Assembly (NCBI RefSeq): GCF_016903815.1
Contig: NZ_CP069973.1
Origin: Escherichia coli
GTDB lineage: Bacteria; Pseudomonadota; Gammaproteobacteria; Enterobacterales; Enterobacteriaceae
Length of the DNA stretch: 64,000 bases
Reading direction: 5' to 3' (one strand)
This document shows, one piece after another, positions 1,478-2,578 of the stretch. A program made the position numbers and the translations under genes. The number at the start of each line of letters is the position of its first letter. The stretch's first letter is position 1. Under the pieces are notes generated by a model. That model was not told where the DNA came from. It saw nothing but the letters and a program-made list of their open reading frames with translations, and searched no databases.

Positions 1478-2578
1478 ATGAAATTAAAAATAGTTGCGGT
1501 GGTTGTAACTGGTTTGTTAGCTGCGAACGTAGCACACGCTGCCGAAGTCTATAACAAGGATGGTAATAAACTCGACCTTTATGGCAAGGTTACCGCTCTA
1601 CGTTATTTTACTGATGATAAGCGTGACGATGGTGATAAAACTTATGCCCGTCTCGGCTTTAAAGGAGAAACGCAAATCAATGATCAAATGATTGGTTTTG
1701 GTCACTGGTAATATGATTTTAAAGGCTATAACGATGAAGCCAACGGCTCGCGCGGTAACAAGACCCGTCTGGCCTATGCAGGTTTAAAAATTAGTGAATT
1801 TGGCTCTCTGGACTATGGTCGTAACTACGGTGTCGGCTATGACATTGGTTCATGGACCGATATGTTGCCAGAATTTGGTGGCGATACCTGGAGTCAGAAA
1901 GATGTCTTCATGACATACCGTACTACCGGTGTGGCAACCTATCGCAACTACGATTTCTTCGGCTTAATTGAAGGTCTGAACTTTGCCGCGCAATATCAAG
2001 GCAAAAATGAACGCACTGACAATGGTCATCTTTATGGTGCTGACTACACGCGTGCCAATGGTGACGGTTTCGGTATCTCCTCAACTTATGTTTATGATGG
2101 CTTTGGTATCGGTGCGGTGTATACCAAATCCGATCGGACAAATGCGCAGGAAAGAGCCGCTGCTAATCCTCTCAATGCCTCCGGTAAGAATGCAGAACTG
2201 TGGGCTACAGGTATAAAATATGATGCCAACAACATCTACTTTGCAGCTAATTACGCTGAAACATTAAACATGACCACCTATGGCGATGGTTATATCTCTA
2301 ACAAAGCACAAAGTTTTGAAGTAGTGGCACAATATCAATTCGACTTCGGCTTGCGCCCATCACTCGCTTACCTGAAATCGAAAGGCAGAGATCTGGGCCG
2401 CTACGGCGACCAGGACATGATTGAGTATATCGACGTTGGTGCGACGTATTTCTTCAACAAAAATATGTCGACCTATGTTGATTATAAAATCAACCTGATT
2501 GATGAAAGCGACTTTACCCGTGCCGTAGATATTCGCACCGATAACATCGTCGCAACGGGCATTACCTATCAGTTCTAA
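1478..2578 (+). pseudogene. yddL: OmpC/OmpN-family porin gene interrupted by a single in-frame TAA at 1709..1711 (yddL-like)
   Basis: Track ORFs 1478..1711 and 1862..2578 are in the same frame; signal peptide [21 protein letters not shown], porin motifs (GFGHW, EFGGDTW) and C-terminal ...GITYQF; the stop sits where GFGHW-E-YDFKG would be expected. Confidence 0.8.

Follow-up and report, generated by a model that had tools for sequence, protein, structure and literature searches.

The question raised by this locus is whether the porin gene that follows yddG in Escherichia coli has been inactivated by a single nonsense codon and, if so, which porin has been lost, when, and with what consequence. 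The DNA analysed is a stretch of 64,000 nucleotides (contig NZ_CP069973.1), hereinafter referred to as the window, to which all the coordinates refer. In our reading, to which we assign a probability of about 0.93, a nonsense mutation that occurred recently and within one clone has abolished the function of a general-diffusion porin gene that is intact in all other respects. The frame and the signals accompanying it are the following:

1464..1468, forward strand: Shine-Dalgarno-like AAGGA, 9 nt upstream of the ATG, read from the sequence
1478..2578, forward strand: porin pseudogene, counterpart of ompD, with 366 codons plus the stop and one internal stop
1478..1540, forward strand: signal peptide of 21 codons, ending with AHA, the mature protein starting with AEVYNK (read from the sequence, with no predictor)
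1709..1711, forward strand: ochre codon TAA replacing GAA, Glu57 of the mature protein (codon 78; G>T transversion at 1709)
2590..2613, forward strand: terminator-like GC-rich hairpin followed by a T run, 12 nt past the natural stop, from a sequence scan

The translation of the frame 1478-2578 on the forward strand revealed a single internal stop, at codon 78, besides the natural TAA at 2576-2578, together with the hallmarks of a porin, that is, the signal peptide, the loop-3 motif LPEFGGDTW, and the C-terminal ...GITYQF with its aromatic Phe. The predicted cleavage site is placed as in OmpC, OmpN, and OmpD when the N-termini are set side by side. Once GAA had been restored at codon 78, the protein matched the Pfam model PF00267 (Porin_1) with 448.6 bits over model positions 1-337 out of 337, and residues 22-366 matched the solved OmpK36 and OmpC chains with 425-428 bits, the similarity to solved porins being about 60% over the full length. 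The uninterrupted frame of a 16-strand barrel is missing from the window copy, which has TAA at codon 78; the locus is a pseudogene of the Porin_1 family and not a functional member of it. The porin body has a G+C content of 44-48% vs. 31-36% in the adjoining leucine-rich-repeat (LRR) genes.

As to which porin this was, the gene order from the start of the window is the 5' end of fdnG (on the reverse strand), yddG, the porin, a broken LRR gene, narU, and narZ. The landmarks needed for the comparison with other genomes are:

338..1219, forward strand: yddG, an aromatic amino acid exporter of the DMT/EamA family (293 aa), which anchors the synteny with Salmonella ompD
1757..1764, forward strand: K-12-type end of similarity, at about codon 93, where yddL is joined to LRR-gene sequence
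2742..3709, forward strand: hybrid LRR pseudogene, with an out-of-frame fusion at about 3028/3029
4021..5409, forward strand: narU, the conserved downstream boundary of the island

The repaired protein shares 78% identity with a porin of C. koseri, 72% with Salmonella OmpD, and 67% with NmpC/Lc, and the matches named OmpD rank above those named NmpC or Lc; the identity to OmpF is 57%. Two further identities were tried and rejected: OmpC, at 59.7% identity, whose gene lies elsewhere in K-12, beside micF at 2.31 Mb, and OmpN, at 59.4%, whose gene also lies elsewhere in K-12, beside micC. The name "porin OmpC" attributed by PGAP is due to the NCBIfam model NF007841, which was passed narrowly (495.3 bits, with a cut-off of 484) and whose type is subfamily, not equivalog. 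In Salmonella and C. koseri, the slot of the OmpD-type porin consists of fdnIHG (reverse), yddG, and the porin itself, with narU and narZ following after a few genes; moreover, YddG of the window is 85.6% identical to that of Salmonella. On both similarity and position, the window porin is the positional counterpart of ompD, with OmpD as its most similar characterised relative. The first-pass annotation had called the frame OmpC/OmpN-type, a label that is roughly right for the family and wrong for the orthology, OmpD being closer and located at the same locus.

Salmonella OmpD, like the E. coli gene, lies after yddG and before narU-narZ, and both belong to Porin_1 as 16-strand general porins; downstream of the porin, however, there are LRR genes (O-island 62) in E. 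coli and GFA/smvA/smvR in Salmonella. E. coli OmpC and OmpN share with the window porin the family, the architecture, and near-identical mature N-termini. The NmpC/Lc proteins represent the second closest group and are prophage-borne, whereas the window porin is chromosomal and occupies a conserved syntenic position; in K-12, nmpC is itself a pseudogene, interrupted by IS5. The pairing of yddG and ompD is known from Salmonella (Santiviago 2002, as cited in PMC4215857) and from Enterobacter hormaechei (PMC11874173). In that literature (PMC4215857 and Santiviago 2002), OmpD is described, for Salmonella only, as an abundant porin, involved with YddG in methyl viologen efflux and subject to sRNA control. 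Losses are on record as well: S. Typhi lacks ompD (PMC4215857), and in E. hormaechei the gene has been deleted or truncated (PMC11874173).

Within E. coli, the product of K-12 yddL (96 aa) is 100% identical to the window frame over residues 1-93, and the K-12 gene order is yddG-yddL-yddK-yddJ-narU. The EHEC O-island 62 is situated between yddG and narU, and the phylogroup D EAEC strain 042 has it too (PMC3079680). The gene in the window is the full-length form of K-12 yddL and corresponds to z2239 of O-island 62. Unlike the window copy, z2239 of O157:H7 (WP_000768382.1) is intact, with 366 aa and GAA at codon 78; the two alleles share 99.2% amino-acid identity and differ at 22 nucleotides. In O157 the porin is followed by more LRR genes, including espR1, whereas in the window it is followed by the collapsed LRR hybrid pseudogene. 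K-12 yddL (b1472) occupies the same yddG-narU locus but has lost the remaining approximately 270 codons by a deletion into the LRR genes. The K-12 deletion and the window point mutation are independent routes of inactivation of the same gene. A 2023 paper treats K-12 YddL (96 aa) as an uncharacterised four-strand beta-barrel protein with a possible link to osmotic stress (PMC9976479); from the alignment, K-12 YddL (L027 5739-6029) is simply the N-terminal stub of an OmpD-type porin, left by the deletion.

The next point is which codon should be expected at 1709-1711. An 80-nt query centred on the site was found exactly, in its TAA version, in 68 RefSeq complete E. coli records, vs. 3717 of the 4261 E. 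coli genomes having the stretch for the same 80-mer with G at 1709 (GAA). GAA also occurs at codon 78 in all ten intact full-length copies fetched from the ranked matches, and Glu is present at the aligned position, within the motif GQWEY, in the solved OmpC and OmpK36 structures. GAA (Glu) is thus the ancestral codon. Moreover, the nearest intact allele, WP_000768393.1 (strains SCU-313 and DG342-2), differs from the 1101-nt gene of the window at one nucleotide only, position 1709. The first-pass annotation had proposed that one ochre codon is the sole lesion of the gene, that Glu (GAA) was to be expected there, and that other strains be checked for GAA; the single G1709T difference bears out the first claim, the 80-mer counts and the two structures agree with the second, and the check returned the 3717 records mentioned above. 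An origin of the T at 1709 in faulty sequencing or assembly has a negligible probability and was rejected, the base being common to 68 complete genomes that were sequenced independently of one another, from human, dog, cattle, wild-bird, and water sources in many countries and on several continents, and the TAA allele tracking with a lineage; because these independent assemblies have T there, it is very unlikely that reads with GAA would overturn the stop.

The segment 1250-2700 of the window is 100% identical in strain 7/2, where PGAP annotates the gene as "porin OmpC", pseudo, with an "internal stop"; the same internal-stop flag is found on the copies of strains 405 and Ec-U14-1. The pseudogene status is already flagged in the public RefSeq annotation, and the event belongs to a known and ordinary class. 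In the literature searched for yddL, for ompD with yddG, and for ST405 porin pseudogenes, this specific stop codon is not mentioned. Strain 7/2 is identical to the window up to position 9852, where an IS200C (about 711 bp) splits its narY; in the window, narY (9241-10785) is an intact ORF of 514 aa without IS200C, which rules out strain 7/2 as the source of the window and points to another member of the same lineage.

The effect of the stop can be depicted as follows. The G>T change at 1709 turns codon 78 from GAA (Glu) into UAA, and translation would halt after 77 residues, corresponding to the 21-residue signal peptide and 56 mature residues. According to the alignment to OmpC and OmpK36, these 56 residues account for no more than two or three strands, at the start of a barrel that has 16; such a fragment should be unable to form a barrel or a trimer, so that no porin would be made from the locus. 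The truncated product would be without function and probably degraded in the periplasm, and the loss would be tolerated because OmpC and OmpF remain. The allele is predicted to be a null one.

A working porin might still be produced if the stop were bypassed by read-through, by a suppressor tRNA, or by re-initiation, and past the stop some pipelines do annotate an ORF of 269 aa as a "porin" (P0014; 57 sequences, 168 contigs). We consider this highly improbable. The base following the TAA is T (context TAAT), and in E. coli no context terminates translation more strongly than UAA with U as the next base; no tRNA gene was found by ARAGORN in the 64-kb window, so no suppressor is encoded there, and simple promoter and terminator scans found no recoding signal in the window. 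The downstream ORF begins at a CTG, codon 98, without the signal peptide and the first strands, and would be neither exported nor folded; the locus is, in addition, treated as a pseudogene by PGAP. The P0014 ORF, named "porin" or "phosphoporin PhoE", is an annotation artefact of the pseudogene.

To date the nonsense mutation, an independent segment of 24 kb (window 20000-44000) was compared. The 60 best genomes for this segment show 99.9-100.0% identity, strain 2779 having the top score, and are largely the same strains that carry TAA. Eight near-identical genomes, lying outside the TAA carriers listed (60 of 68), were fetched and checked at the porin locus. The stop is present in two of them (strains 405 and Ec-U14-1), and the other six (TUM1223, 50579417, AR_0372, Z1002, STO_Bone2, and ECOCN22) harbor the intact WP_000768393.1 gene; the YddG protein allele is identical in all eight stretches, and so is the fdnG allele wherever it is included. 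TAA and GAA carriers share the same score classes over the 24-kb segment and, among the genomes at least 99% identical over it, TAA is found in about 67 out of about 96. Since both codons occur among near-identical relatives, the mutation arose inside one clone; it is polymorphic there and younger than any divergence visible in 24 kb.

The identity of the carriers points to the lineage concerned. One TAA carrier, WCHEC96200, has been assigned in print to ST405 and phylogroup D (PMC5762679); another, WCHEC4533, was included in the comparison made for an ST405 isolate (PMC9037040). The source of the window is inferred, through its nearest relatives, to belong to an ST405-like, phylogroup D, multidrug-resistant lineage. 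In the mechanism that we propose, the mutation would be recent in this one clonal lineage and would have been inherited vertically by part of it. The earlier claim of a recent inactivation is consistent with the occurrence of both alleles in near-identical relatives and with the fact that no second lesion has accumulated; its corollary, that long-term decay is not involved, applies to the window copy but not to the species, in which about three quarters of the locus-bearing genomes keep a truncated stub.

The same G>T change (GAA to TAA), at the position corresponding to 1709, was also observed in one unrelated genome, E. coli MB06233 (NZ_CM129883.1; 2308-2538 of locus L011), which has a K-12-type truncated yddL remnant and flanking SNPs that differ, for instance at window positions 1228, 1273, 1299, 1312, 1390, and 1501. 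The stop of MB06233 may have arisen a second time, in a gene that was dead before, or may have come with a very short patch of recombination.

The LRR region downstream of the porin suggests a relative date. The segment 2579-3028 of the window matches the 5' end of the first LRR gene of O-island 62 (98-99% to O157 and SCU-313), and the segment 3029-4020 corresponds, at 92.8%, to the 3' end of the last one (the K-12 yddK/yddJ region), about 1.6 kb of the O157 sequence being absent from the LRR region of the window. AR_0372, whose porin is intact, is annotated with this LRR pseudogene too, truncated likewise at the C-terminus and equally far from the porin gene, and, because of this, the LRR collapse is probably older than the ochre mutation.

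Farther along, the window holds other features. An orphan type VI secretion vgrG, a gene for an Rhs core protein (1401 aa), and a small downstream ORF, annotated from the identical region of strain 7/2, lie on the reverse strand (19824-26309 and 18568-19119) and adjoin an ISAs1 transposase remnant and an Rhs fragment. A hicA/hicB type II toxin-antitoxin pair lies at about 44242-44880 on the reverse strand, the coordinates being transferred from strain 7/2 with a 711-bp offset. Three matches passed the Rfam gathering threshold: the Hfq-binding sRNA STnc490 (49834-49957, reverse strand, 146 bits), the sok antitoxin RNA of a hok/sok-type module (60911-61062, forward strand, 111.5 bits), and the sRNA RydC (61622-61685, forward strand, 92.5 bits).

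The distribution of the porin in the species was checked by using window 1250-2700 as a query, which matched 4272 of 5426 complete genomes, about 1150 having no match. The full-length gene (at least 80% of the query) is present in 1101 genomes, and in about 3170 the match extends only over the first 506-512 nt or so, which corresponds to the K-12-type truncation; thus, about 74% of the locus-bearing genomes have only the deletion-truncated remnant. Eleven full-length copies, taken at even intervals along the ranked matches, comprised ten intact genes and one with the stop. The locus is lost repeatedly across E. coli by different routes. Two further forms were observed: P0005, in which porin residues 1 to about 283 are fused to an LRR C-terminus, represents another deletion route, and P0001, on a 2.1-kb ENA contig, has an OmpC-like N-terminal third and a yddL-like remainder, and may be a recombinant or an assembly chimera.

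Where the gene is intact, pairwise Nei-Gojobori comparisons of five alleles (the repaired window gene, O157:H7, 32F4, AST85, and TUM14759) gave dN/dS values of 0.02-0.09 for every appreciably diverged pair, the repaired window gene and AST85, for instance, differing at 35 synonymous and three non-synonymous positions. On these values, the intact porin is clearly maintained by strong purifying selection and is functional where uninterrupted.

The explanation that survives best beside a neutral loss is that the loss was selected, through a lower influx of antibiotics or through escape from phages, colicins, or antibodies, and helped a multidrug-resistant sub-lineage of ST405. The TAA allele is indeed frequent in the clone (the 67 or so of about 96 genomes mentioned above), a loss of porins in which ompD takes part gives E. 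hormaechei carbapenem resistance at the cost of virulence (PMC11874173), and the strong purifying selection on the intact gene indicates that losing it is not obviously cost-free. However, hitch-hiking alone can explain the frequency within a clone, and the species readily discards the gene (about 3170 truncated copies and about 1150 genomes with no match), which points to dispensability; furthermore, the sole second occurrence of the G>T change, that of MB06233, sits in an already dead remnant, beyond the reach of selection on the porin. If the adaptive explanation were true, that recurrence could also point to a local mutational hotspot. We regard a selected loss as unlikely, and somewhat less likely still that the ochre is an adaptive marker of a successful ST405 sub-clade, acting via a lower drug influx or a lost phage, colicin, or antibody target and contributing to the expansion of that sub-clade. 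Dispensability and hitch-hiking explain the data just as well as adaptation.

As for what the finding means, the names "porin OmpC" (PGAP) and "yddL, uncharacterized" (K-12) both conceal the identity of the gene, and the stop accounts for the spurious 269-aa "porin/PhoE" ORFs called 3' of it. G1709T could also serve as a simple epidemiological marker splitting the ST405-like lineage. Beyond such bookkeeping the finding matters little; a modest, testable question is how far the porin loss alters the entry of antibiotics into a high-risk clone or its sensitivity to phages, if at all. For the family, it means that there are at least three ways in which E. coli strains have come to be without a working counterpart of OmpD: the K-12-type deletion, complete absence, and a nonsense codon.
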